DNA from: a virus
Lineage: Duplodnaviria; Heunggongvirae; Uroviricota; Caudoviricetes
IMG/VR virus record: IMGVR_UViG_2534681703_000014
Location: 1-45,442 of that record
DNA: 45,442 bases
Reading direction: 5' to 3' (one strand)
The notes under the pieces are model-generated. The model was not told the origin of the DNA. It searched no databases and saw only the letters and a list, made by a program, of their open reading frames with translations. Each line of letters opens with the position of its first letter. The stretch's first letter is position 1. Shown piece after piece: positions 1,704 through 19,040 of this stretch. A program made the position numbers and the translations under genes.

Positions 1704-4175
1704 TTAAAAATCAGCCTGACTCGGGATCAGTTTTTGCCAGATAGCTGAAACGTATTTTGCCTGGTAACGAGCGTCATCAAGTGCATTATGGCGCTCACCT
1801 TCGAATGGGATAGCAGTTCTGGCATCGAAGTCTATGGCTTTCCCCAGCTCAACGATTGTGCGTACATCGCGATCGTTGTAGTAACGCCACGGGCAGGGGA
1901 TCCCCTGCCGCTCGTATGAACGGCGCAAAATAGTGTTGTCGAAGTTGGCTCCATTTCCCCAGACCTGAACAAAAAATTCACCGGAGTTTTCGTCGATAAA
2001 TTCCCGCAATTGTAACAGTGCATCATCTAACGGGATTTCATCGGTCATAATGGCAGATTGCGCTTCGCGTGATTGTTTAAGCCACCATTTAATGGTGTCC
2101 CGATCAATGACTCCGCCAGCAGTTTCCAGATCGATAGTCTTACTAAATTCCGGTCCCATATCTCCGGTTTGCGGATCGAAAAATATTGCACCTATTGAGA
2201 TAATCGGGGCATCGGGATTTTTTCCCATGGTTTCAAGGTCGATCATCAGATGAATCCCCGCTCTGCTGGTGGATGTGAGATTATGATGACCGTTCGCCTT
2301 AATTAAGGGATCTGACGCCTCGCCAGTTTCACTATCGCTGGCATGATGCTGATTGCCGCCAGTGTTCTCCTTGTGCTGATGCGCAGTGCCTTCCATTTCC
2401 TCCGGATCATTTTCCTGAACTTCAGGCTGATTCTCTCCATCGAATATTTCCTGGTATGTTGCGTCACCCATCACCGCACCACAATCAGGGCAGTTGCCGC
2501 CACCGCTCTGACCGCAGGCGGTGCAGATCTTTTCCGGTTCCTGTTGCACTACTGGTTCAGGTTGTTTCGTTTCTGGCTCGTTTTGTTGCGTATTTTGGCT
2601 GTTTTGTTCCGCTTTCTGGTCGTTCTGTTCCGTTTCTTGCTGGTTCTGGTTCGCAGAATCGCGGGTCTGGATCCCCTTAACCCATTTCGGATCATTCGGG
2701 TCGCTAATCCCTTCAACAAATTCACCACGTGATACTGCAAGCAGTTCATCGGCGTCAGGCTGGCTGATATTGGCTGCCTGCATAATTTTGTTTACTTCGT
2801 CAGCGGTAACTTTTACCGGTTCTGGCTGTGCGGTCGTGTCAGATGCACCAGTATTTTGTTGTGAACCTGAGTATGTACCGTTTTTGCGGGCGAAATATTC
2901 TTCTTTCGTGATTTCAGTAGCCCCTGCAGCCAGTGCCTTATCCAGACCAGAAAGTTTGTTTGCGCGACCGTATTTTTCGCCATCCTTGTCGGTGAAGAGG
3001 AAGTAGAACGGCCCCTCACGCTCTACAGATGGTTCGACTTCCACTTTGCATTCGGTTTTTTCGTTGTCCGGAATTGCCGTTTCCACTGCATCAGTTTCTG
3101 GTACTGGCGACGAGAGAGTATCAGTTGCGCTCTGATTTGTTCCTTCATCTTCAAACACGCCCTTTGTAGTCAGGTATTCAGTAATGTATTTGTTCAGTGC
3201 CACAGGATCTTTGTGAATGTCGATCGGACGTCCACGGACAAGGCCAAAAATAGTCTGGCGGTCGTAGCGAAGGGCATCAGGCTGTTTGCGCATCGATGCC
3301 GAGATACGCTTCCAGTCTTCGCGGTCGTTGTCGATAACTTCATTTTTTGCCCAGCGATGGATGCTGCCGTCAATGTTTCCGGCATCCACATCACCAGGCC
3401 AGAGAGCGTAGGCCAGTTCGTCATCCAGTGTTTTCCATGTCTGCTTGTATTCGCGATGAATGACTGCAGTGACAGGGGAGATATTTTCTGCTGAGTTTTC
3501 AGTGTGCTGTCGGTTGACTCTGGCGCGGGCGAGATCAACAGCAGACGTGTATTTTCCGGTTTCCTTGCGTTCACCTTCGCGACGTTTTTTCCAGATGCGC
3601 ATCTCTGCCTGAATTTCGGGCCATTTAGCTCCAGGCTTACATTTATGCTTAACCCACCCGATGGCATGCAACTTAAGTTCTGGATACATGGCGTTAACTT
3701 CTGGCATTTTCATCAACGCTTCAACGATATGTCCGTCGAATGTTGCCATGTCTTCCTGCAACAATTCCTGCGCGCTAATCACCATATCAACGGTGATGTT
3801 TTCACATGTGTCGAACTTAACCATGACAGCGTTCTGTACTTCAGGGGCCAGCTTGTCAAAAGTGACGTTCATCGGATCTGATTCAGTCTCAACCGGGACA
3901 AAGGAAGCAGACTCCTCATCCCAGCGGTTTTCCTGCATATATTCAGCATCCCAGGAATCGAGGGCAGGGCGGGGTATACCGGGTTTATCCTCGCAAACAA
4001 GAAATTTATAAGCGCAGTCCTGAGCAGCCGGATATTGCTCCAGGAATTGCCAGGTAAATTTGGCACGGGCGCGGCGTTCGTCACCGGCTTCAATGGCAGT
4101 GGCTACAGCAACTGCACCTTCTTCCTTTATTGCCTGTTCGTCCGGAATGGCAGCGCAAATAAAGACTTTACTCAT
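1704..4175 (-). CDS. Prophage exonuclease, 823 aa, with C-terminal DnaQ-like (DEDDh) 3'-5' exonuclease domain
   Basis: C-terminal motifs MIDLETMG ... HNALDDA fit the DnaQ/RNase T fold; central Q/N/E-rich low-complexity linker; position matches the exo slot of lambdoid early-left operons. Confidence 0.8.
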   Translation of the reverse strand: MSKVFICAAIPDEQAIKEEGAVAVATAIEAGDERRARAKFTWQFLEQYPAAQDCAYKFLVCEDKPGIPRPALDSWDAEYMQENRWDEESASFVPVETESDPMNVTFDKLAPEVQNAVMVKFDTCENITVDMVISAQELLQEDMATFDGHIVEALMKMPEVNAMYPELKLHAIGWVKHKCKPGAKWPEIQAEMRIWKKRREGERKETGKYTSAVDLARARVNRQHTENSAENISPVTAVIHREYKQTWKTLDDELAYALWPGDVDAGNIDGSIHRWAKNEVIDNDREDWKRISASMRKQPDALRYDRQTIFGLVRGRPIDIHKDPVALNKYITEYLTTKGVFEDEGTNQSATDTLSSPVPETDAVETAIPDNEKTECKVEVEPSVEREGPFYFLFTDKDGEKYGRANKLSGLDKALAAGATEITKEEYFARKNGTYSGSQQNTGASDTTAQPEPVKVTADEVNKIMQAANISQPDADELLAVSRGEFVEGISDPNDPKWVKGIQTRDSANQNQQETEQNDQKAEQNSQNTQQNEPETKQPEPVVQQEPEKICTACGQSGGGNCPDCGAVMGDATYQEIFDGENQPEVQENDPEEMEGTAHQHKENTGGNQHHASDSETGEASDPLIKANGHHNLTSTSRAGIHLMIDLETMGKNPDAPIISIGAIFFDPQTGDMGPEFSKTIDLETAGGVIDRDTIKWWLKQSREAQSAIMTDEIPLDDALLQLREFIDENSGEFFVQVWGNGANFDNTILRRSYERQGIPCPWRYYNDRDVRTIVELGKAIDFDARTAIPFEGERHNALDDARYQAKYVSAIWQKLIPSQADF

Positions 4176-4254
4176 TTTGTTTTACCTCATTACAGATTTA
4201 AGGGTGAACAAATCCCTGCCATTGCTGGCATATAAAAATGAAACTGGATATTAA

Positions 4255-4458
4255 TTACGGCGCTGTTTTTAATCCTGCCGGGATTTCGTTATTATCCATG
4301 CGAATAACTTTCTCGACCAGATAACAGTTACCAGGAATTTTCTGTTCTGCTGCGGCAGCCATACATTCTTTCATTGAACCATATATACCAGTAACCACAT
4401 CAACAGGTTCGCCAGTATTAAGAAAAACAGTCAGAGTGAGGGCAACAGCAGTCTTCAT
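4255..4458 (-). CDS. Hypothetical small early protein (67 aa)
   Basis: ORF in the early-left operon; ATGA start/stop overlap with upstream ORF suggests translational coupling; no recognised domain. Confidence 0.4.
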   Translation of the reverse strand: MKTAVALTLTVFLNTGEPVDVVTGIYGSMKECMAAAAEQKIPGNCYLVEKVIRMDNNEIPAGLKTAP

Positions 4459-4748
4459 TGCCAGCGTCCTTTTTGCATCAGGCGTAAACGGGCCAGCATT
4501 GAAACAATGCATATTTTATTTAATAACTCCCGTTCGTGTTTTCTCTTGTTAATGGCATCTTCAGTAAATACAGGGTTACTGATAGTGACACCAATTTCAA
4601 AACAACCTTCAGACGTATTAACGTTTGGTAATAACGTTTCCATTATCGCGTCCTCAACAATGAATTTTGTGATGCGGTGCCTGGTGCCTCCAGGTGACGT
4701 TAACCAGTTAACAATTAACGCCGGATACAGAGAATCCACCCATAACAC
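4455..4748 (-). CDS. Hypothetical early protein
   Basis: ORF co-oriented with the early-left operon; start codon uncertain. Confidence 0.4.
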   Translation of the reverse strand: MLWVDSLYPALIVNWLTSPGGTRHRITKFIVEDAIMETLLPNVNTSEGCFEIGVTISNPVFTEDAINKRKHERELLNKICIVSMLARLRLMQKGRWQ

Positions 4749-5204
4749 TGTTTTTGGTTTTAACTGTTCCGCGTGCGCTTAGCCGCATTCACCGCATCAC
4801 AAAATTCACTTTAAAAAGGGCGGCAGAGCAGTCACGGAGTAAAACTGATACCGCTAAACGCCACCAGAAAATTGATAACAGAGGGCGTTGCAGCGGGGTT
4901 GTCACTTAAGCGTATGGTCAACCTGACAACCCGGTGTCCTCAACGGGGAAGGAATAACCCCGCCATACTTACCGCCGCGCCATTTCGCGGATTGCCACAA
5001 CCGGAAGCGCACGGTCGACGAAAATTTAACGACAGGCTATCTATGAACCAGCAACCTCGCCGTGCGCTTTCGCGTTATGCTCTGACTTTTCAGAGAAATA
5101 TCCTTTCAGTAAACTGTCAGTACCGGATGCTCACCCGTGTCCGGCGCACGCACTCCACCTCACCCGTGGAGAACTCCTTAAGTACCAACCCTCAGGATGG
5201 TGAA

Positions 5205-5426
5205 ATGACTAGTAAAAATGTAAATATCCAGTTTAACCACGATGTTTCTCCTGCCGGACTTGCGGATGAACTCACTGCTATAAAAACAGCAATTATGCTA
5301 CTTGTTGCTAAGTTGCCAGCAGCATCACAACCATCAGATATTTGTGACTCATTACGTAAGATGAATTCAACAAAATGCAACGAGATGGCATCACTTATTG
5401 AAATAGCTATTGATTTTAATGATTAA
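5205..5426 (+). CDS. Hypothetical small protein (73 aa) encoded opposite to the early-left operon
   Basis: ATG at 5205 with upstream GGATGGTGA; 3' end overlaps by 11 nt the convergent minus-strand gene; the upstream part of the listed 184-aa ORF looks non-coding. Confidence 0.3.
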   Translation: MTSKNVNIQFNHDVSPAGLADELTAIKTAIMLLVAKLPAASQPSDICDSLRKMNSTKCNEMASLIEIAIDFND

Positions 5427-5790
5427 TCGAAATCTCATGGCTAACTGTAACACTCCCGTCTGTGGCGGGATGCTTTAAATCACAGGAGTTAACGCTTTTT
5501 GTTGCAAAGTAATTTTCAAGGGGGTCTATTCGAATCCCTTTCTTTTTCATTAACAAGCCAAACCCCTTATCAATGATGTCCATTAGATCCAGGAAGTATT
5601 TTTTATGTAAATCCTGGTTATCAGAGAGCTGCTTCTCTTCGTACAGACCGATAAAGGCACGACGCACGTTACCGGATATAGTATAGATGGTTTCTTTTTC
5701 TACGGTACTCAGGTCAAGAGTCGCCAGTTGGGAACGAACTATATTCGCTGCCATTTCCTGGAATTGCATTGGTAAATCTTTAAATTCCAT
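5416..5790 (-). CDS. Hypothetical early protein (124 aa)
   Basis: ORF in the early-left operon; no recognised motif. Confidence 0.5.
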   Translation of the reverse strand: MEFKDLPMQFQEMAANIVRSQLATLDLSTVEKETIYTISGNVRRAFIGLYEEKQLSDNQDLHKKYFLDLMDIIDKGFGLLMKKKGIRIDPLENYFATKSVNSCDLKHPATDGSVTVSHEISINH

Positions 5791-5812
5791 TATTAGCCTC
5801 GTTGGTTAGCTA

Positions 5813-6031
5813 TTAACGTGGGTATGTAATCATTCTGGCAATGCTTAATGCCGCTGCTTTTTCCAGCCTGGTGATATCCTGCTCCAGAGCGGACAGATTT
5901 TCAGCCTGCTTAGCCCTGGCTTCATTGGCCCATTTCAGATCCTGCGCTGCATTAATTTTCTGGCGCATCCACTCATAAAGTTCATCATCGGTATAGTCTT
6001 GTGCGATGATGACGGGTTCTCGTTTCTGCAT
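5813..6031 (-). CDS. Hypothetical early protein (72 aa), coiled-coil-like
   Basis: ORF in the early-left operon. Confidence 0.45.
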   Translation of the reverse strand: MQKREPVIIAQDYTDDELYEWMRQKINAAQDLKWANEARAKQAENLSALEQDITRLEKAAALSIARMITYPR

Positions 6032-6060
6032 ACTGATTCCTCGCGGTGCTGTTTCGCTTA

Positions 6061-11679: not shown

Positions 11680-12366
11680 ATGACCACAATAAATACGTTT
11701 ATGACAGTTGCTGATTTCAAACGGCCTAAATTGGAGCTCCCAAACGGGGCAAACAAACTACTACTGCACTCTTGCTGTGCTCCATGTTCCGGTGAAGTGA
11801 TGGAGGCGCTTCAGGCCTCGGGAATCGACTACACCATCTTTTTCTACAACCCGAACATTCATCCTCAGAAAGAGTATTTAATTCGTAAGGATGAGAATAT
11901 TCGCTTTGCTGAACAACACGGCGTGCAGTTTATCGATGCTGATTACGACACAGACAACTGGTTTGAACGTGCCAAAGGAATGGAATGGGAGCCCGAGAGG
12001 GGGATCCGTTGTACCATGTGTTTTGACATGCGTTTTGAGCGGACAGCGTTGTACGCTGCTGAAAATGGTTTCAGTGTGATCAGCAGTTCGCTGGGCATTT
12101 CACGCTGGAAAAATATGCAGCAGGTTAACGACTGTGGGCGGCGAGCCGTCGCGCATTATCCGGGAATGGTGTACTGGGATTATAACTGGCGCAAGCAGGG
12201 CGGCTCGTCCCGTATGATTGAAATCAGCAAGCGCGAAAAATTCTATCAGCAGGAATATTGTGGCTGTGTGTATTCTCTGCGCGATACCAATCTACACCGC
12301 AAATCTCAGGGACGCCCTCTTATCAAAATTGGTCAACTCCACTACGGTAAAGAAGAGAAGGAGTGA
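11680..12366 (+). CDS. queH: Epoxyqueuosine reductase QueH family (DUF208)
   Basis: N-terminal [11 protein letters not shown] and later CGCVYS motifs match the QueH/DUF208 Cys signature as I recall it; 228 aa. Confidence 0.7.
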
Positions 12367-13199: not shown

Positions 13200-14255
13200 G
13201 TGCGGGTATTACTTCGACCTGTTCTGGTGCCGGAACTTGGGGTGGTTATCGTTAAGCCAGGTCGTGAATCCATGCAGGTATTCCATAACGGCAGAGTGCT
13301 GGTTGAACCGGAGCCAAAAAGCATGCGCGGTCTGCCGTCCGGGGTCGTTCCTGCCGTTCGCCAGCCGCTGGCGGAGGATAAATCATTACTGCCATTTTTC
13401 AGCGATGAGCGGGTGATTCGTGCTGCTGGTGGTGCTGGTGCATTGTCTGACTGGCTGTTGCGCCATATTAAATCCTGCCAGTGGCCACACGGCGATTATC
13501 ATCACAGCGAAACCGTCATTCACCGTTATGGTACCGGCGCAATGGTGTTGTGCTGGCACTGCGACAACCAGCTGCGTGACCAGACATCCGAATCACTCGA
13601 GCAACTTGCTCATCAAAACCTGTCAGCATGGATGATTGATGTCATACGCCATGCAATGAATGGCACGCAGGAGCGGGAATTATCGCTGGCTGAATTATCC
13701 TGGTGGGCAACCATAAATAACGTAGCGGACGCACTACCGGAGACGGTATTACGTCGTTCGCTGGGATTACGCGCGGAAAAAATCCGCTCGGTGTACCGCG
13801 AAAGCGACATCATACCGGGAGAGCAGACAGCCACCAGCATCCTGAAACAGCGCACAAAAAGTATTGCGCTACTGCCTCACGCCCACCAGCAAAACCCGCC
13901 ACAGGAAAAGACGGTGGTCAGCATTGCCGTTGATCCGGAGTCACCGGCTCAGTATCTCCAGCGCCAGAAACCACAACGGGAAGAGATGCCCGTATACACG
14001 CGCTGGGTAAAAACGCAGAAATGCATGACGTGTGGCAATCAGGCAGATGATCCGCATCACATCATTGGTCATGGACTGGGAGGGATGGGAACAAAGGCTG
14101 ATGATTTGTTTGTTATTCCGCTGTGCCGTAAATGCCATAGCGAACTACACGCCGGGGTAAAAGATTTTGAAGAAAAACACGGCAGCCAGCTGTTGTTGCT
14201 GATTCGTTTTTTAATGCACGCGAGAAATTCGGGTGTCCTGAAGTGGAAAGCATGA
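13200..14255 (+). CDS. DUF968-family protein (YdfU-like), with C-terminal Cys/His cluster
   Basis: GTG start with GGAGG SD; 351 aa; C-terminal CGNQADDPHHIIGHG...CRKCHSELH motif; immediately upstream of rusA as in Qin/DLP12-type prophages. Confidence 0.6.
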   Translation: MRVLLRPVLVPELGVVIVKPGRESMQVFHNGRVLVEPEPKSMRGLPSGVVPAVRQPLAEDKSLLPFFSDERVIRAAGGAGALSDWLLRHIKSCQWPHGDYHHSETVIHRYGTGAMVLCWHCDNQLRDQTSESLEQLAHQNLSAWMIDVIRHAMNGTQERELSLAELSWWATINNVADALPETVLRRSLGLRAEKIRSVYRESDIIPGEQTATSILKQRTKSIALLPHAHQQNPPQEKTVVSIAVDPESPAQYLQRQKPQREEMPVYTRWVKTQKCMTCGNQADDPHHIIGHGLGGMGTKADDLFVIPLCRKCHSELHAGVKDFEEKHGSQLLLLIRFLMHARNSGVLKWKA

Positions 14256-14633
14256 ATGACTGAACGCATAGAATTTGTTTTGCCTTACCCGCCAACGGTG
14301 AACACTTACTGGCGACGTCGTGGCAGCACATATTTTGTATCAAAAGCCGGTGAGCGTTATCGCCGTGATGTGGCGCTTATTGTTCGCCAGCAGCGGCTGA
14401 AATTAAACCTGTCCGGAAGGCTGGCGATAAAGGTGATTGCAGAGCCACCGGATAAGCGCCGCCGCGACCTGGACAATATCCTGAAGGCACCACTGGATGC
14501 GCTGACGCATGCCGGACTACTTATAGACGACGAGCAGTTTGATGAAATCAATATTGTGCGCGGTCAGCTCGTTCCTGGTGGGCGGCTGGGCGTGAAGATT
14601 TGCGAAATCAGAGGCGATGGTAATGGGGCGTGA
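14256..14633 (+). CDS. rusA: Holliday junction resolvase RusA
   Basis: RRRDLDN motif and overall similarity to E. coli RusA by recollection; 125 aa. Confidence 0.8.
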   Translation: MTERIEFVLPYPPTVNTYWRRRGSTYFVSKAGERYRRDVALIVRQQRLKLNLSGRLAIKVIAEPPDKRRRDLDNILKAPLDALTHAGLLIDDEQFDEINIVRGQLVPGGRLGVKICEIRGDGNGA

Positions 14634-14973
14634 TATGTATGAGGTTTTAGATCGCTGGGGGGCATGGGCTGCAGCAGAAAATAGCGGTGTCGATTGGCAA
14701 CCGATAGCAGCGGGCTTCAAGGGGCTTTTGCCACATGGCAAAAAGTCACGTCTCCAGTGTGATGATGATGAAGGCATCATGATAGACGGTTGTGTGGCTC
14801 GGTTGCGAAAGTATAAACCAGAGGAATATGAGCTGCTCATAGCTCACTTTGTTATTGGTGTTTCTCTACGCTCAATCGCGAAGAAACGCAGGTGCTCAGA
14901 TGGAACTATAAGAAAGGAGCTGCAAACTGCATTAGGCTTTATTGATGGATGTATATGCTTGATTCTATCATAA
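14617..14973 (+). CDS. Late-gene antiterminator Q (phage 82/QuuD-like)
   Basis: VLDRWGAW...IAAGFKGL...SRLQCDDD...CSDGTIRKELQ closely resembles the QuuD-type Q sequence I recall; overlaps the rusA 3' end. Confidence 0.75.
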   Translation: MVMGRDMYEVLDRWGAWAAAENSGVDWQPIAAGFKGLLPHGKKSRLQCDDDEGIMIDGCVARLRKYKPEEYELLIAHFVIGVSLRSIAKKRRCSDGTIRKELQTALGFIDGCICLILS

Positions 14974-14986
14974 GTTATGACTGTTA

Positions 14987-15373
14987 CTACTCGTTTGCTT
15001 GAGCTTTCGATTCGGCGTCAGATAAAGCATCAATACGAATATTTATGTTTTTTAATAGCTTATTGTCTAGATCGATAAGACATTGGTTGTAGTGCGCAAT
15101 TTGGTCTGGTGTTAGGTTAGGGTTGGCCAGGCAGTTCGTGATGAATTTTCTGGCCGTTTTTATTTCCCTTTTCATTCTTACATCATTAAGCGTAGGCAAA
15201 CCTATGTAAGCGATAAGAAGAATTACCACATGAGATAAGCCGACAGCAGCTCCAGGCGCCAATGATTTGAAGAAGGCTAATTGAGGAAGCCAGTCAAAAA
15301 GGAAATTCAATCCCGCAGTGATAAGGGTGGTAAACCATGCCTGCATTGCCAGGTAGGATTTAGTGTTCGCCAT
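14987..15373 (-). CDS. Unknown membrane protein (128 aa, about 2 predicted TM helices); third gene of antisense 3-gene cassette
   Basis: Hydrophobic segments WFTTLITAGLNFLF and AVGLSHVVILLIAYIGL; start codon directly abuts the stop of the upstream gene; AT-rich. Confidence 0.5.
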   Translation of the reverse strand: MANTKSYLAMQAWFTTLITAGLNFLFDWLPQLAFFKSLAPGAAVGLSHVVILLIAYIGLPTLNDVRMKREIKTARKFITNCLANPNLTPDQIAHYNQCLIDLDNKLLKNINIRIDALSDAESKAQANE

Positions 15374-15619
15374 TCACCTTCCTGCACTTGCTTCGTTGCG
15401 AGTTTTGAGTTCGCGTAGCAGTAGCGCCAACTCTTCTGCGTCATTTTCGTTTCTAACGCTGACTTTCCTTTTAGCGGTTCTGCCTTCAGGATCGGTGTAG
15501 GTTAGTTCAATATACGCATTCGGCTTTACCCAAACCAAGAACCTAAGCACAGCATATCTGACCGTCGCTGCGACAGCCATGAATACAGTGATGTAAAGCA
15601 TAATGCTTAGGATTGACAT
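15374..15619 (-). CDS. Unknown small membrane protein (81 aa, N-terminal TM); second gene of cassette
   Basis: N-terminal hydrophobic ILSIMLYITVFMAVAATV; 3-nt gap to upstream gene stop. Confidence 0.5.
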   Translation of the reverse strand: MSILSIMLYITVFMAVAATVRYAVLRFLVWVKPNAYIELTYTDPEGRTAKRKVSVRNENDAEELALLLRELKTRNEASAGR

Positions 15620-15622
15620 GAT

Positions 15623-16534
15623 TTAAAGTAGTTTCCTATCTGCCGCCGCTCTGTGGCGTATAACCTTAGTAATACTATAGCGTGGTTTAGACAGCGCGCC
15701 ATTTGTTTCTTTTGTTGTTTCTGTCAGTTCTACAACAAAAAGATCACCCTTACAGAATGCTGCTTGGTTGTGTTCAACCCGTTCAAGAAAAGCCTCATCT
15801 TTCATAGATGCACTAACTTCTTCGCCATTTGGCAGGATGATATCCCAGCTTTTGCCTTGCTTGAATCGAACATTAGCAAAATGTACATTAGCTTGGCGTG
15901 TCGTTACGTGCGTTTTCTCGACAAAGGTGGATTTTGCAGTTTTAAAACTTACTGCTTCAGCTTGCGTCACCCTGACTACCTTATGCTTCTGCTGTGAAAC
16001 TGAGAACGTGGATGGTTTTTCAGTCTGCAGGGGTTTATAGATTAATTTATCCAGTTCTTTTCGGATGATTGGACTGGTTATTAATTTTTGAATGTCGTTA
16101 CTGCATTTAACCTTCTCACCATCCACTTCGATTTCTGCTGTATCTTTTTGTTCATCGACGACAATGGAGCTGATTTTACGCCCTTTGAGCCATTCGATTA
16201 TCCCGAGTACGCCACCTGCGGCAACTCCACCACCTGCAACGAGGCCAAGGGCGTTAATAGTTTTTATGCTCCCCATCACAGCAACAAGCAAAGTAAATGA
16301 ACCTTCTTTTGTTGCCTTGATGTTGACTTTCGGCTCTGCTGTTTCGCCATTAATTATTTTTTCGGCGTGTTCAATCAGGGCACTAAGAGAGGTTAAGGCT
16401 TCGCCTAATGTTTTCGCGTCGATCTGATTATCTGCGTATGCCTCTCCACCGTAGGCAATTTCGATTTCTGTTATTGGCATGTTTTCGAGTTGCTGCGTCA
16501 TCAAAAGCATCCTTTGCGCAAGAGAAATAGCCAC
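15623..16534 (-). CDS. Unknown 303-aa protein with central Gly-rich hydrophobic segment and Lys-rich C-terminal domain; first gene of cassette
   Basis: Long ORF; hydrophobic FTLLVAVMGSIKTINALGLVAGGGVAAGGVLGIIEWL near residues 80-115; start uncertain (GTG 16534, ATG 16510 or 16480); no family recognised. Confidence 0.55.
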   Translation of the reverse strand: MAISLAQRMLLMTQQLENMPITEIEIAYGGEAYADNQIDAKTLGEALTSLSALIEHAEKIINGETAEPKVNIKATKEGSFTLLVAVMGSIKTINALGLVAGGGVAAGGVLGIIEWLKGRKISSIVVDEQKDTAEIEVDGEKVKCSNDIQKLITSPIIRKELDKLIYKPLQTEKPSTFSVSQQKHKVVRVTQAEAVSFKTAKSTFVEKTHVTTRQANVHFANVRFKQGKSWDIILPNGEEVSASMKDEAFLERVEHNQAAFCKGDLFVVELTETTKETNGALSKPRYSITKVIRHRAAADRKLL

Positions 16535-16539
16535 AGGAT

Positions 16540-16622
16540 ACAGATAATTATGAAAAAATCACTAACGCGTACGCAAAAACTATCTTAATCTGTTAAGAGT
16601 GGTCGCTTCGCCACACAACTTA
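16540..16622 (+). promoter_or_regulatory. Candidate late promoter (pR'-like) feeding a short terminated leader
   Basis: GATAAT -10-like hexamer near 16570 about 50 nt upstream of an intrinsic terminator, an arrangement reminiscent of lambda pR'/6S RNA/tR'; no convincing -35. Confidence 0.3.
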
Positions 16623-16647
16623 AACCCGCATCAAGCGGGTTTTTTTG
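16623..16647 (+). terminator. Rho-independent terminator (tR'-like) upstream of the tRNA cluster
   Basis: Hairpin CCCGCA-TCAA-GCGGG followed by TTTTTTTT. Confidence 0.6.
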
Positions 16648-16766
16648 TGTCACTTATCTCGGATAGACATGGTGAATGCGCTGGTGGAGGAGATAAGGGT
16701 GATTTTTAACCAGGTGATTTTTGAATGCTTGCAACATTGATTTCGTAACGTTATTATCCTGCGCCC

Positions 16767-16842
16767 GGCCCTTTAGCTCAGTGGTGAGAGCGAGCGACTC
16801 ATAATCGCCAGGTCGCTGGTTCAAATCCAGCAAGGGCCACCA
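16767..16842 (+). tRNA. tRNA with CAU anticodon, resembling E. coli tRNA-Ile2 (ileX-like); Met cannot be excluded
   Basis: Manual cloverleaf: acceptor GGCCCTT/AAGGGCC, D-arm GCTC..GAGC, anticodon loop CTCATAA, T-arm GCTGG-TTCAAAT-CCAGC, 3' ACCA. Confidence 0.85.
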
Positions 16843-16843
16843 A

Positions 16844-16920
16844 CCGCCACTAGCTCATCAGGAAAGAGCGTCAACCCTTTAAGTTGAGTGTGCGAGGTTC
16901 GAGTCCCCGGTGGCGGTCCA
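16844..16920 (+). tRNA. Atypical tRNA-like gene, apparent anticodon UUU (Lys) with C33 and U73
   Basis: Acceptor CCGCCAC/GTGGCGG, D-arm GCTC..GAGC, anticodon stem TCAAC/GTTGA with loop CCTTTAA, T-loop TTCGAGT with one stem mismatch, 3' TCCA. Confidence 0.5.
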
Positions 16921-16922
16921 GT

Positions 16923-16998
<76 letters not shown>

Positions 16999-17001
16999 TA
17001 T

Positions 17002-17076
<75 letters not shown>

Positions 17077-17441
17077 GCATTTGCAACAAGCCTTATTGTA
17101 TTGCGGCACTGGTGTATTTTTTATTACGTGGGAGCAGGTTGTTTTGAAAAAGCATTCTGTTCTCTGGCTATAATTTGAGGCCAGGTGTAGCCTCAGTGCT
17201 GATTTTTTTACGACAGCAGAATGGTGCATTATCGGTGGAGATTTTGTATTTCCTGGCAGGGTCGGTGATGCATCATTCTGGTGTTGTAAATCGCACCAAA
17301 GAGGCGCACCTAAGTGCGAGTGTGGTTTAAAGAGTCGGTTTAGCTGGAAATCACAGTATCCATACAGCACGGAATACTTCGGGAGGCGCCAGACGCCTCG
17401 GTTTAATAACAATTAAAAAATTCATCCCTTGCATTGACCAA

Positions 17442-17465
17442 CCGCCATATCTGGCGGTTTTTTTA
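17442..17465 (+). terminator. Rho-independent terminator in the tRNA-lysis spacer
   Basis: Hairpin CCGCCA-TATC-TGGCGG followed by TTTTTTT. Confidence 0.5.
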
Positions 17466-17832
17466 TTCCTTTCTCATGACGAAAAAAGACACGAGCATCC
17501 AGGAATACTCGTGGGACAACGTCCTTTGGATAGCAATTTGCGAGAGGGTGAAAAGTAGCGCGGTCGTCGGATTAAGACCGCGGGACAAAGTCCATGAAGA
17601 ATAATAAGTATTGGTCCCCTTCCGGGGACATGTTCATACTACTAAGATTCAGAAGTGGTTTAAATCCTCAAATTAACATTAATTTCCGATAAGTCTTATT
17701 TCATTTCTTTGCGCCACATCTGGCGCGCATCAAATAACGCCACGCAAAGGGCATCTGCGGATGCCGGTGCTTTTGACGGGGTGTTTTTTACGGGCCGCTG
17801 GTGGCCCTTTTTTATTTACAGGAGAAAAAAGT

Positions 17833-18225
17833 ATGTCTGAACCCTTATCCGGTTCCGGCACGGCTGCGGCGCTCGGCGGGGCGACGGTGTACGGGCTGTT
17901 TACCGGGACGGATTTCGGGATTGTGTTTGGTGCGTTCGCCGGTGCGTTATTTGTGGCAACGATGCCGCAGGCGCTTTCAGCCTGGCGTGTGGCGGCGCAT
18001 TTTCTGGTGTCGTTCATTATCGGCGTGCTGGGGGCAGAGGTTCTGGCGTCCTGGCTGGTAAAGCATACAGGGTTTGACGGTGCACCTGTCGACGCACTGT
18101 GTGCAGTGCTGGTGTCAGTGGTGTCGGTGAAGATTCTGTCGTTCATCCACCAGCAGGATATTGCATCACTGGTGTCCGGTGTGTTCTCCCGCCTGCGGGG
18201 CGGAGGAGGCGGCAATGTTAAGTAA
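17833..18225 (+). CDS. Putative holin (131 aa, multiple TM segments)
   Basis: ATG 17833 with AGGAGA SD; hydrophobic Gly/Ala-rich TM segments; first gene of the lysis cassette ahead of the endolysin. Confidence 0.55.
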   Translation: MSEPLSGSGTAAALGGATVYGLFTGTDFGIVFGAFAGALFVATMPQALSAWRVAAHFLVSFIIGVLGAEVLASWLVKHTGFDGAPVDALCAVLVSVVSVKILSFIHQQDIASLVSGVFSRLRGGGGGNVK

Positions 18226-18493
18226 CCTTCCCGGATTGCTGAATGTGGCGTTATGCACGGTTATCGTGCTGACGCTCTTTTTTTATCGTCGTCGTGACTC
18301 CAGACACAAACCGCTGATGTCATGGCTGGCCTGGCTGCTGATGCTGCTGTATGCCTTTGCGCCCCTCAGCTATCTGTGCGGTCGCCCGTTAGCGGCGAAC
18401 TGGCTGGCGGTGGGGCTTAATCTGCTGTTCTGCGTGTTGGTGATTCGCGCACGCGGGAACGTTTCAAAAATCTTTGTATTACGAAGGCGCTGA
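18215..18493 (+). CDS. Second lysis-cassette membrane protein (holin/antiholin-like, 92 aa)
   Basis: ATG 18215 with GGAGGAGG SD; about 3 TM segments; overlaps the previous gene 3' end and abuts the endolysin start. Confidence 0.45.
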   Translation: MLSNLPGLLNVALCTVIVLTLFFYRRRDSRHKPLMSWLAWLLMLLYAFAPLSYLCGRPLAANWLAVGLNLLFCVLVIRARGNVSKIFVLRRR

Positions 18494-18494
18494 T

Positions 18495-19040
18495 ATGAAG
18501 TCGAAAGATGAAATTTTTGACGAAGTTCTGGGAAAAGAGGGCGGTTATGTCAATCACCAGGATGATAAAGGCGGACCGACAAAATGGGGTATTACTGAAA
18601 AAGTTGCCCGTGCGCACGGATACCAGGGCGATATGCGTGATCTGACGCGCGGACAGGCGCTGGAAATACTCGAGGCGGACTACTGGTATGGACCACGTTT
18701 TGACCAGGTGGCAGCGTTATCCCCTGATATTGCCGCAGAGTTGTGTGATACGGGCGTCAACATGGGGCCAGCCGTGGCGTCAAAAATGCTTCAACGCTGG
18801 CTGAACGTTTTCAACCTGCGCGGGAAACTGTATCCGGATATGGATGCAGACGGACGTATCGGGCCGCGTACTCTTAATGCATTACGGGTATATCTGAAAA
18901 ATCGTGGCAGGGATGGAGAGCTGGTAATGCTGACCGCACTGAACTGTACGCAGGGTGACCGCTATCTGGAGCTGGCAGAGAAACGGGAGGCTAACGAGTC
19001 GTTTGTTTACGGCTGGATGAAAGAGCGCGTAGCAGTTTAA
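18495..19040 (+). CDS. Endolysin, glycoside hydrolase family 108-like with C-terminal peptidoglycan-binding region
   Basis: N-terminal EVLGKEGGYVNHQDDKGGPTKWGIT matches the GH108 signature as I recall it; 181 aa. Confidence 0.7.
   Translation: MKSKDEIFDEVLGKEGGYVNHQDDKGGPTKWGITEKVARAHGYQGDMRDLTRGQALEILEADYWYGPRFDQVAALSPDIAAELCDTGVNMGPAVASKMLQRWLNVFNLRGKLYPDMDADGRIGPRTLNALRVYLKNRGRDGELVMLTALNCTQGDRYLELAEKREANESFVYGWMKERVAV

Follow-up and report, generated by a model that had tools for sequence, protein, structure and literature searches.

Where does the late promoter of a lambdoid prophage lie when its antiterminator gene, Q, is followed by genes on the opposite strand? The question is raised by the 45,442-nucleotide stretch of DNA in IMG/VR record IMGVR_UViG_2534681703_000014 (the window), which represents an Escherichia coli prophage in which Q is followed by an antisense cassette of 1.6 kb, and then by a promoter/terminator unit, tRNA genes and the lysis genes. 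The initial annotation of this DNA placed the end of Q at position 14973, with about 1.6 kb of antisense cargo before the promoter/terminator, and this is also what we found: the TAA stop codon of Q is located at 14971-14973, and the interval 14987-16534 is occupied by three minus-strand open reading frames (ORFs) of 128, 81 and 303 amino acids. Judging from the sequence, we consider it likely that the window carries a late-gene switch of the Q21 family that is split by cargo, in which positions 16563-16647 comprise the Q-binding element (QBE), the late promoter pR', the sigma-dependent pause element (SDPE) and the terminator tR'.

The Q ORF (14617-14973, 118 amino acids) matched PF06530, "Phage_antitermQ" (E=3.7e-45, 153 bits as compared to a cut-off of 26), which is the family of the phage 21 Q protein (PMC9388147), as well as PHROG 79, "anti-termination protein Q-like". 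The Q protein of phage 21 and QuuD both match PF06530 as the window Q does, while the match between the window Q and the Q21 structures 6P18 and 6JNX was only distant (E=0.002). Translation likely starts at 14623 or 14635, which gives a product of 112-118 amino acids.

A conserved control unit downstream of the cargo

The Q of the window was used to scan IMG/VR, which gave 80 loci in which Q is 87-100% identical (sample 1). A second sample, anchored on the 13-mer TGTTAAGAGTGGT, comprised 119 loci, of which 96 have a PF06530 Q upstream (sample 2), and the two samples were pooled into a set of 178 loci. Among the relatives that share the Q subtype are Stx1 and Stx2 phages, mEp460, a Klebsiella phage and SfII, and these carry differing antisense genes after Q, followed by the same element. 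The arrangement TAACGCGTACGCAAAA-N12-TGTTAAGAGTGGT was identified downstream of Q in 74 of the 80 loci in sample 1, and five of the six loci without it have less than 1.6 kb of downstream DNA.

In the relatives, the element takes the form CTAACGCGTACGCAAAA-n-TAnnnT-nnnn-TGTTAAGAGTGGT, followed by a hairpin and a T-run, and the copy in the window covers positions 16562-16647 (Table 1). The box and the 13-mer each occur only once in the whole window. The 13-mer is identical in every Q cluster sampled, DLP12 included, and the TAAGAGT at 16594-16600 is invariant in all relatives, with the same spacing from the -10 hexamer as the annotated TAAGCTG of phage 21. Transcription from pR' is predicted to start at about 16592-16593, downstream of a TATCTT hexamer that lies 36 nt upstream of the terminator stem, and TAAGAGT, or the AAGAGT within it, would be the SDPE. 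The late start near 16580 that was suggested in the initial annotation is close to our estimate of ~16593.

The two best plus-strand terminator-like sites between 14500 and 17800 are located at 16622-16642, followed by a T-run, and at 17440-17459; all other plus-strand matches before the tRNA genes are weak, short stems within coding sequence. The terminator previously placed at 16623-16647 agrees to within one nucleotide with the best site, 16622-16647. The RNA corresponding to 16593-16652 folds with -20.3 kcal/mol (z = -3.8 as compared to shuffled sequences), and a hairpin with a T-run is present at the position of tR' in most of the 93 distinct relatives, with stems and loops that vary.

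In the predicted leader (16593-16623), UUAAG/CUUAA enclosing GUGGU/GCCAC can pair just before the terminator, and a paired change to TTAGG...CCTAA is seen in two relatives (L080 and L084). An analysis of covariation showed that 91.6% of the cells were paired, with double changes in 3 cells only, which is too little for a structure claim. In a scan of positions 14000-18500 against Rfam at a permissive threshold, the tRNAs alone scored above noise, and the leader fell into no known RNA family. The RefSeq/PGAP annotation of strain E66 has a coding sequence for a 36-amino acid "antiterminator" (WP_099524307.1) at 16599-16709 on the plus strand, with a GTG start codon within the 13-mer and a reading frame that runs straight across the tR' hairpin. 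This looks like an annotation artefact named after its neighbourhood.

Cargo-free sites and a hotspot for cargo between Q and the box

Between the Q stop codon and the box there are 1,589 bp in the window, 974-2,986 bp in other relatives and only 16 bp in three relatives with a 99% identical Q (L020-L022). The DNA between Q and the box falls into 18 unrelated clusters among the 80 close relatives, with ORFs that are nearly all antisense, and into 43 cargo clusters among the 178 pooled loci. In sample 2, the gap between Q and the box is longer than 300 bp in 81 of the 96 loci, while Q and the box are adjacent in 15. Most loci of this Q clade thus have cargo between Q and pR', and the layout is genuine without being exotic. 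The initial expectation that pR' lies immediately after Q is correct for lambda, 21 and 82, but not for this clade. The suggestion that pR' has been displaced by an insertion is supported by the presence of the unit behind at least 18 cargos in the 74 relatives that have it, and directly after Q in the three cargo-free ones.

A strong hairpin terminator is located directly 3' of Q in most cargo classes. Cargo in several of the other classes matched PD-Lambda-5 A and B, NsnA/PD-T4-2 with a cytosine (C5) methylase, a ThsB-like TIR protein with a caspase-like protein, PDC-M53A and PDC-S33, and that of the window matched a candidate defence family only (PDC-S42). The region between Q and the box is a cargo hotspot, and the window cassette is one of the gene sets that occupy it.

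The cargo-free site in L020 reads ...CATAA GTTATGAAAAAATCAC TAACGCG..., and as compared to this site the window has 1,573 additional bp (14981-16553), with direct repeats of TTATGA at the two edges (Table 1). The event could have been either an insertion or a deletion between the TTATGA repeats. The repeats were considered as a transposon footprint, but this was rejected, as the cassette has no element features and was found in no other contexts. A search for transposon hallmarks identified neither convincing terminal inverted repeats nor a transposase, and the cassette is single-copy and always in this context in its 37 carrier genomes. These were found among 5,426 complete E. coli genomes, and in them the block of Q, cassette and tRNA genes is present at ~99% identity. 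An 11-bp palindrome, CATAA-G-TTATG (14969-14979), covers the Q stop codon and the left TTATGA repeat, and is also present in the empty site of L020.

In the Stx1a phage Stx1_499 (L004, positions 3345-6058), the same Q subtype is followed by three antisense genes and then by the box, the 13-mer and the terminator. Two of its antisense genes were compared with PADLOC, with no match. The stx1A gene starts ~500 bp beyond the unit, so that toxin expression lies behind a split switch in this phage. In the open-access literature, we found no description of a defence hotspot between Q and the box, no mention of the palindromic boxes, and nothing specific on PDC-S42 or on quuD, nmpC and the late promoter.

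Association between Q subtype and box type

The box is exact in all relatives with the window Q subtype, and other palindromes are found in its place where Q belongs to another cluster. Q cluster and box type agreed without exception in sample 2. The box is AACGCGTACGCAA in the window type, TTTACGTACGTAA in the QuuD type and GCGGTCCGC in the PhiR5 and mEp390 types, and the smaller Q clusters have ATTCGTTACGAAT (L106, L136, L160, L177), TGTGTTATAACAA (L102, L121, L133, L190), TGTGGAATTCCAA (L101) or CCGCGGGCCGCAA. All box types hold a palindromic or near-palindromic core. Also for the distant PF06530 Q proteins of mEp390, PhiR5_1 and DLP12, the 13-mer and the terminator are kept and the upstream box differs.

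The putative recognition helix of Q, defined here as the stretch that aligns as the second helix of a helix-turn-helix, tracks the box: IRKELQ is found with GCGTACGC, IGKRLQ with ACGTACGT and IRIEMQ with GCGGTCCGC. Six Q proteins that are 65-77% identical to the Q of PhiR5_1 share both IRIE(M/I)Q and the GCGGTCCGC box. L005 and L010 are near-identical downstream of the 13-mer, and their box and -10 hexamer differ in step with the Q subtype. The box, at about -30 to -15, thus changes together with both the Q cluster and the putative recognition helix, a pattern that could partly reflect linkage.

The antisense cassette and its predicted divergent promoter

Cargo gene 1 matched PADLOC PDC-S42 (E=3.3e-53) and NCBIfam NF053583 (E=1e-66). 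Its ORF extends mechanically to a GTG at 16534 (303 amino acids), while translation likely starts at the ATG at 16501 (292 amino acids), which is preceded by AAAGGA and is identical to the RefSeq start. Cargo genes 2 and 3 had no matches in Pfam, NCBIfam or PADLOC, and only matches to families of unknown function in PHROGs. L074 and L090 carry diverged versions of all three genes, with the gene order kept, which speaks for the cassette as one unit, and it is a candidate for a membrane-associated, PDC-S42-like defence operon of three genes.

A minus-strand promoter with a start near 16540 was predicted upstream of the cassette (Table 1), with the AAAGGA and ATG of cargo gene 1 located ~40 nt beyond its -10. 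The -35 hexamer, TTGCGT, is the reverse complement of the ACGCAA inside the box. In 21 of 21 cargo classes, a hexamer whose second base is A and whose sixth is T is located 17-18 bp from TTGCGT, with TAnnnT in 19 of them, as compared to a background rate of 0.18 (P ~2e-16 on the assumption of independent classes; some of them share bases adjoining the box, so they are not fully independent). The empty site carries CATAAC at the position of the cargo -10. This predicted promoter supports the expression of the cargo from a promoter of its own in the lysogen.

The predicted starts of pR' and of the cargo promoter are only ~53 bp apart, and the two predicted promoters therefore overlap. The location of the cargo -35 within the putative Q-binding box hints at coupled, divergent control, and it is possible that the cassette is coupled to lytic induction via this overlap. 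A more specific proposal, which we offer tentatively and regard as somewhat doubtful, is that the box serves as a shared control point of back-to-back promoters, for the loading of Q on the plus strand and as the cargo -35 on the minus strand, such that the binding of Q at the lytic switch would turn on the late genes and simultaneously shut off the defence cargo of the prophage itself.

Q and the last cargo gene converge, with 13 nt between their stop codons (14974-14986). No terminator was found after the last cargo gene in the window class, whereas such terminators are present in 12-13 of the 18 cargo classes, and no minus-strand terminator was found within Q or rusA (14500-14987). With no terminator between the convergent Q and cargo genes, early transcripts that read past Q would run on into the cassette as antisense RNA, as would cargo transcripts into Q. 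Such coupling between Q and the cassette would involve early, not late, transcription, and because of the 13-nt gap and the lack of a minus-strand terminator in Q and rusA, the cargo transcripts may act as antisense RNA to Q. A CII/paQ-type site (TTGYN6TTGY) was sought inside Q, but not found.

Comparison with known systems

The closest described case is DLP12 of E. coli K-12, in which quuD is followed by antisense nmpC, a palindromic box, TGTTAAGAGTGGT, a terminator and essD/rrrD/rzpD, as in the layout of the window. Both prophages have a PF06530 Q with antisense cargo directly after it. In DLP12, however, the cargo is a porin gene, nmpC, that is broken by IS5, the box is TTTACGTACGTAAA instead of GCGTACGC, and there is no tRNA block. 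According to a statement in PMC7918800, which cites Microbiology 2013;159:691, the DLP12 lysis cassette is reported to be under the control of a Q-like factor.

In the curated annotation of phage 21, Q is followed by the -35, the QBE (ATTGAGCA AATGAGCA), the -10, the transcription start site (TSS), the SDPE (TAAGCTG), a terminator and tRNAs. The TSS and SDPE are annotated in A(+1)-TAAGCTG, which places the pause element at +2, with the terminator within ~50 nt. Experiments on phage 21 have located the QBE between the -35 and the -10, and have shown that the first bases to be transcribed include a -10-like pause element (PMC6606751; bioRxiv 10.1101/651190). The window has the same order from the candidate QBE to the tRNAs, the same spacing from the -10 to the TSS and SDPE and a common TAAG core, and the position of its box relative to the -10 is that of the annotated QBE. 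The window shares the working logic and the protein family of Q21, but differs in three features of the prototype: in phage 21, pR' is located 6 bp after Q, has a consensus TTGACA -35 and contains a QBE that is a tandem repeat. The other clusters in the PF06530 clade of the window also have palindromes, unlike the tandem direct repeat of phage 21. In addition, Q21 consists of 162 amino acids, as compared to ~115 for the window Q.

The putative pause element of the window, AAGAGT-GG, presumably resembles that of lambda, which we take to be AACGAT-GGG. The pR'-qut-tR' unit (6S RNA) of lambda adjoins Q, unlike the unit in the window, and the lambda Q protein family is unrelated to the window Q (PMC9388147). 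The hotspot system described in 2022 (PMC9122126) resembles the window site in having conserved flanks and many alternative cargos, among them several known defence systems, but differs in phage group and site; the site in the window interrupts a regulatory unit, separating an antiterminator gene from its putative DNA target. In phi80, the tai/ati "non-contiguous operon" has an antisense defence gene in the Q-controlled region, the expression of which drops when Q is made (PMC11364771). The phi80 defence gene is located inside the late transcript and antisense late transcription is the proposed coupling, whereas the window cargo is located upstream of pR' and would not be crossed by late transcripts.

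Alternative explanations

The initial annotation considered that late transcription might run through the cassette in antisense, which is what a late promoter at the 3' end of Q would imply. Near the Q stop codon, TTGATG-18-TATCAT (14942-14971) is the sole sequence that resembles a promoter, and in the window cargo class Q and the cassette have no terminator between them. However, TATCAT lies within a class-specific tail of Q that is not conserved in other cargo classes, and neither a Q box nor a pause motif is present near 14942-14971. The segment 14974-15100, for which a promoter check had been proposed, contains no promoter-like site, Q box or pause motif, and a canonical pR' with a qut-like site next to Q was sought but not found. 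Moreover, a sigma-dependent pause must be promoter-proximal, but the conserved box and pause unit is 1.6 kb away, and most relatives have the strong hairpin directly after Q. A late promoter at the end of Q is therefore very improbable, and the proposed antisense passage of late transcripts finds no support. The late -10 had previously been assigned to GATAAT, ~50 nt upstream of the terminator; this hexamer is actually located at 16543-16548, 74 nt from the stem. Were it the -10 of pR', transcription would include the box, and the role of pause element would fall to TATCTT. As a -10, GATAAT is of good quality, and the relative order of a QBE and a -10-like element after it would still be right, but the hexamer is part of the cargo end and is present neither in the other 20 cargo classes nor in the empty site. 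It overlaps the conserved minus-strand -10, and the other classes have plus-strand hexamers ending in A at this position, corresponding to TAnnnT on the minus strand. There is no -35 upstream of GATAAT, the promoter scan gives no call, and a start from it would place the pause element near +35, unlike in lambda, 21 or 82. The assignment is probably wrong, and we find a pR' with this -10 hardly credible.

A different possibility is that the conserved element is a promoter/operator for the cargo or a small-RNA gene, and that the true late promoter is TTGCAA-17-TATTAT (16729-16757). The latter matches sigma-70 promoters better than any other site in the region (9 of 12), the conserved minus-strand promoter has its -35 in the box, and the leader is able to fold as a conserved stem-loop. 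Yet the promoter at 16729-16757 cannot carry Q specificity, because it is common to phages with three Q types, namely PF06323, the Q21 type and the window type. The surrounding segment (16702-16920) is ~90% identical in phages with a Q82-type Q (L002, L003) and in phage 2851, which has a Q21-type Q, and a role as promoter of the tRNAs is more likely for 16729-16757. In cargo-free phages (L010, L020, L106 type), the box, the 13-mer and the terminator are located between Q and the lysis genes, immediately behind Q, and have no cargo promoter to serve there, and the layout of the unit agrees element by element with the annotated pR' of phage 21. We consider this possibility improbable.

Several observations weigh against our assignment of 16563-16647 to a Q-dependent late promoter. 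pR' has neither a -35 nor a TGn extension, and a scan for consensus promoters gives no call. A -35 was sought at several spacings and in several Q clusters, and none was recognisable except in phage 21; ATCACT is found at the 17-bp position of pR', but is not conserved across classes. A few relatives (L074 type) lack the TA in the -10 hexamer. One relative, L068 (IMGVR_UViG_2808606654_000010), has an 88% identical Q with neither box nor 13-mer within 7 kb downstream, which could reflect a larger cargo or a rearrangement; its Q is followed by a hairpin like that of L078. The association between Q and box could partly represent linkage, since exchange via flanking homology would keep the pairing, and no cargo cluster is common to two box classes at the DNA level among the 178 pooled loci. 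Finally, the box is palindromic, as compared to the tandem direct repeat in the QBE of Q21 (PMC6606751), and the mode of binding is an extrapolation from the latter.

Proposed mechanism

We infer that Q binds the box, that both promoters are active and where exactly transcription starts and pauses, and propose the following order of events. Q would be made from early transcripts and act in trans ~1.6 kb downstream. RNA polymerase would initiate at a promoter that lacks a -35, with TATCTT as its -10 and a start at ~16593, and pause at the -10-like TAAGAGT in the first transcribed bases. In the absence of Q, it would stop at tR', giving a terminated leader of ~54 nt. Q on the palindromic box upstream of the -10 would load onto the paused polymerase, and the Q-modified polymerase would pass tR', the tRNA block and the terminator at 17440-17465 and continue into the lysis and structural genes. 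The cargo would be transcribed away from pR', from its own promoter with the -35 inside the Q box. Given that there is no -35, Q may also aid the recruitment of polymerase at pR'. As a corollary, a large, QuuD-like branch of the Q21 family may read a dyad-symmetric site, unlike the tandem repeat of Q21.

Features of the locus

The features of the locus are listed in Table 1. The first tRNA gene (16767-16842) was identified as Met (anticodon CAT) by ARAGORN, as compared to tRNA-Ile in RefSeq. A tRNA-Ile also occupies the equivalent position in the Stx2 phage 2851, and the gene of the window may encode a tRNA-Ile2 of the lysidine type. Holins and an endolysin are encoded at 17761-19040. In the early region upstream of the nin-like genes, a plus-strand ORF of 228 amino acids (11680-12366) has CxxC-rich motifs and may resemble DUF208/QueH-type proteins.

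Table 1. Positions of genes and predicted control elements around Q in the window.
Feature	Position	Strand	Remark
DUF968/HNH protein	13200-14255	+	End of lambdoid nin region
RusA	14256-14633	+	End of lambdoid nin region
Late-gene antiterminator Q, Q21 family	14617-14973	+	PF06530, PHROG 79
Direct repeat TTATGA, left copy	14975-14980		Comparison with L020
Cargo gene 3, predicted membrane protein of 128 amino acids (hydrophobic stretches)	14987-15373	-	PHROG 26468, function unknown
Cargo gene 2, 81 amino acids, hydrophobic N-terminus	15374-15619	-	PHROG 27630; conserved in L074, L090
Cargo gene 1, 292 amino acids, PDC-S42 / "LAPAL motif" family	15623-16501	-	PADLOC, NCBIfam
Predicted cargo promoter	16547-16576	-	-35 TTGCGT (16576-16571), 18-bp spacer, -10 CATAAT (16552-16547)
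Direct repeat TTATGA, right copy, cargo end	16548-16553		Comparison with L020
Q-subtype-specific box TAACGCGTACGCAAAA, with palindrome GCGTACGC inside	16563-16578	+	Candidate Q-binding element
Predicted pR' -10, TATCTT	16581-16586	+	TAnnnT kept at this offset in most relatives
Invariant 13-mer TGTTAAGAGTGGT	16591-16603	+	Predicted start and pause element
tR', intrinsic terminator of the predicted short pR' leader	16622-16647	+	Stem 16622-16642 and T-run
Promoter-like site TTGCAA-17-TATTAT, not Q-specific	16729-16757	+	Directly upstream of tRNAs
Four tRNA genes (CAT, Lys, Thr, Gly)	16767-17076	+	Between tR' and lysis genes
Second strong intrinsic terminator	17440-17465 (stem 17440-17459)	+	Ahead of holin genes

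Implications for phages of this Q branch

In the annotation of phages from this Q branch, among them Stx1 and Stx2 phages, Shigella serotype-converting phages, Klebsiella prophages and DLP12, the place to look for the late promoter is at the 13-mer TGTTAAGAGTGGT, and not next to Q. The PF06530 clusters of the L102, L106 and L101 types, with boxes of their own, represent a ready-made set for the specificity of Q-DNA recognition. The interval between Q and the 13-mer is a productive place for new anti-phage systems, with many of the 43 cargo clusters having no PADLOC match. In some Stx1 phages, stx1 is located directly behind such a unit, and the unit therefore bears on toxin regulation. The overlap between the predicted cargo promoter and the putative Q site suggests a simple way in which a prophage might switch off the defence genes that it carries upon entering the lytic cycle.

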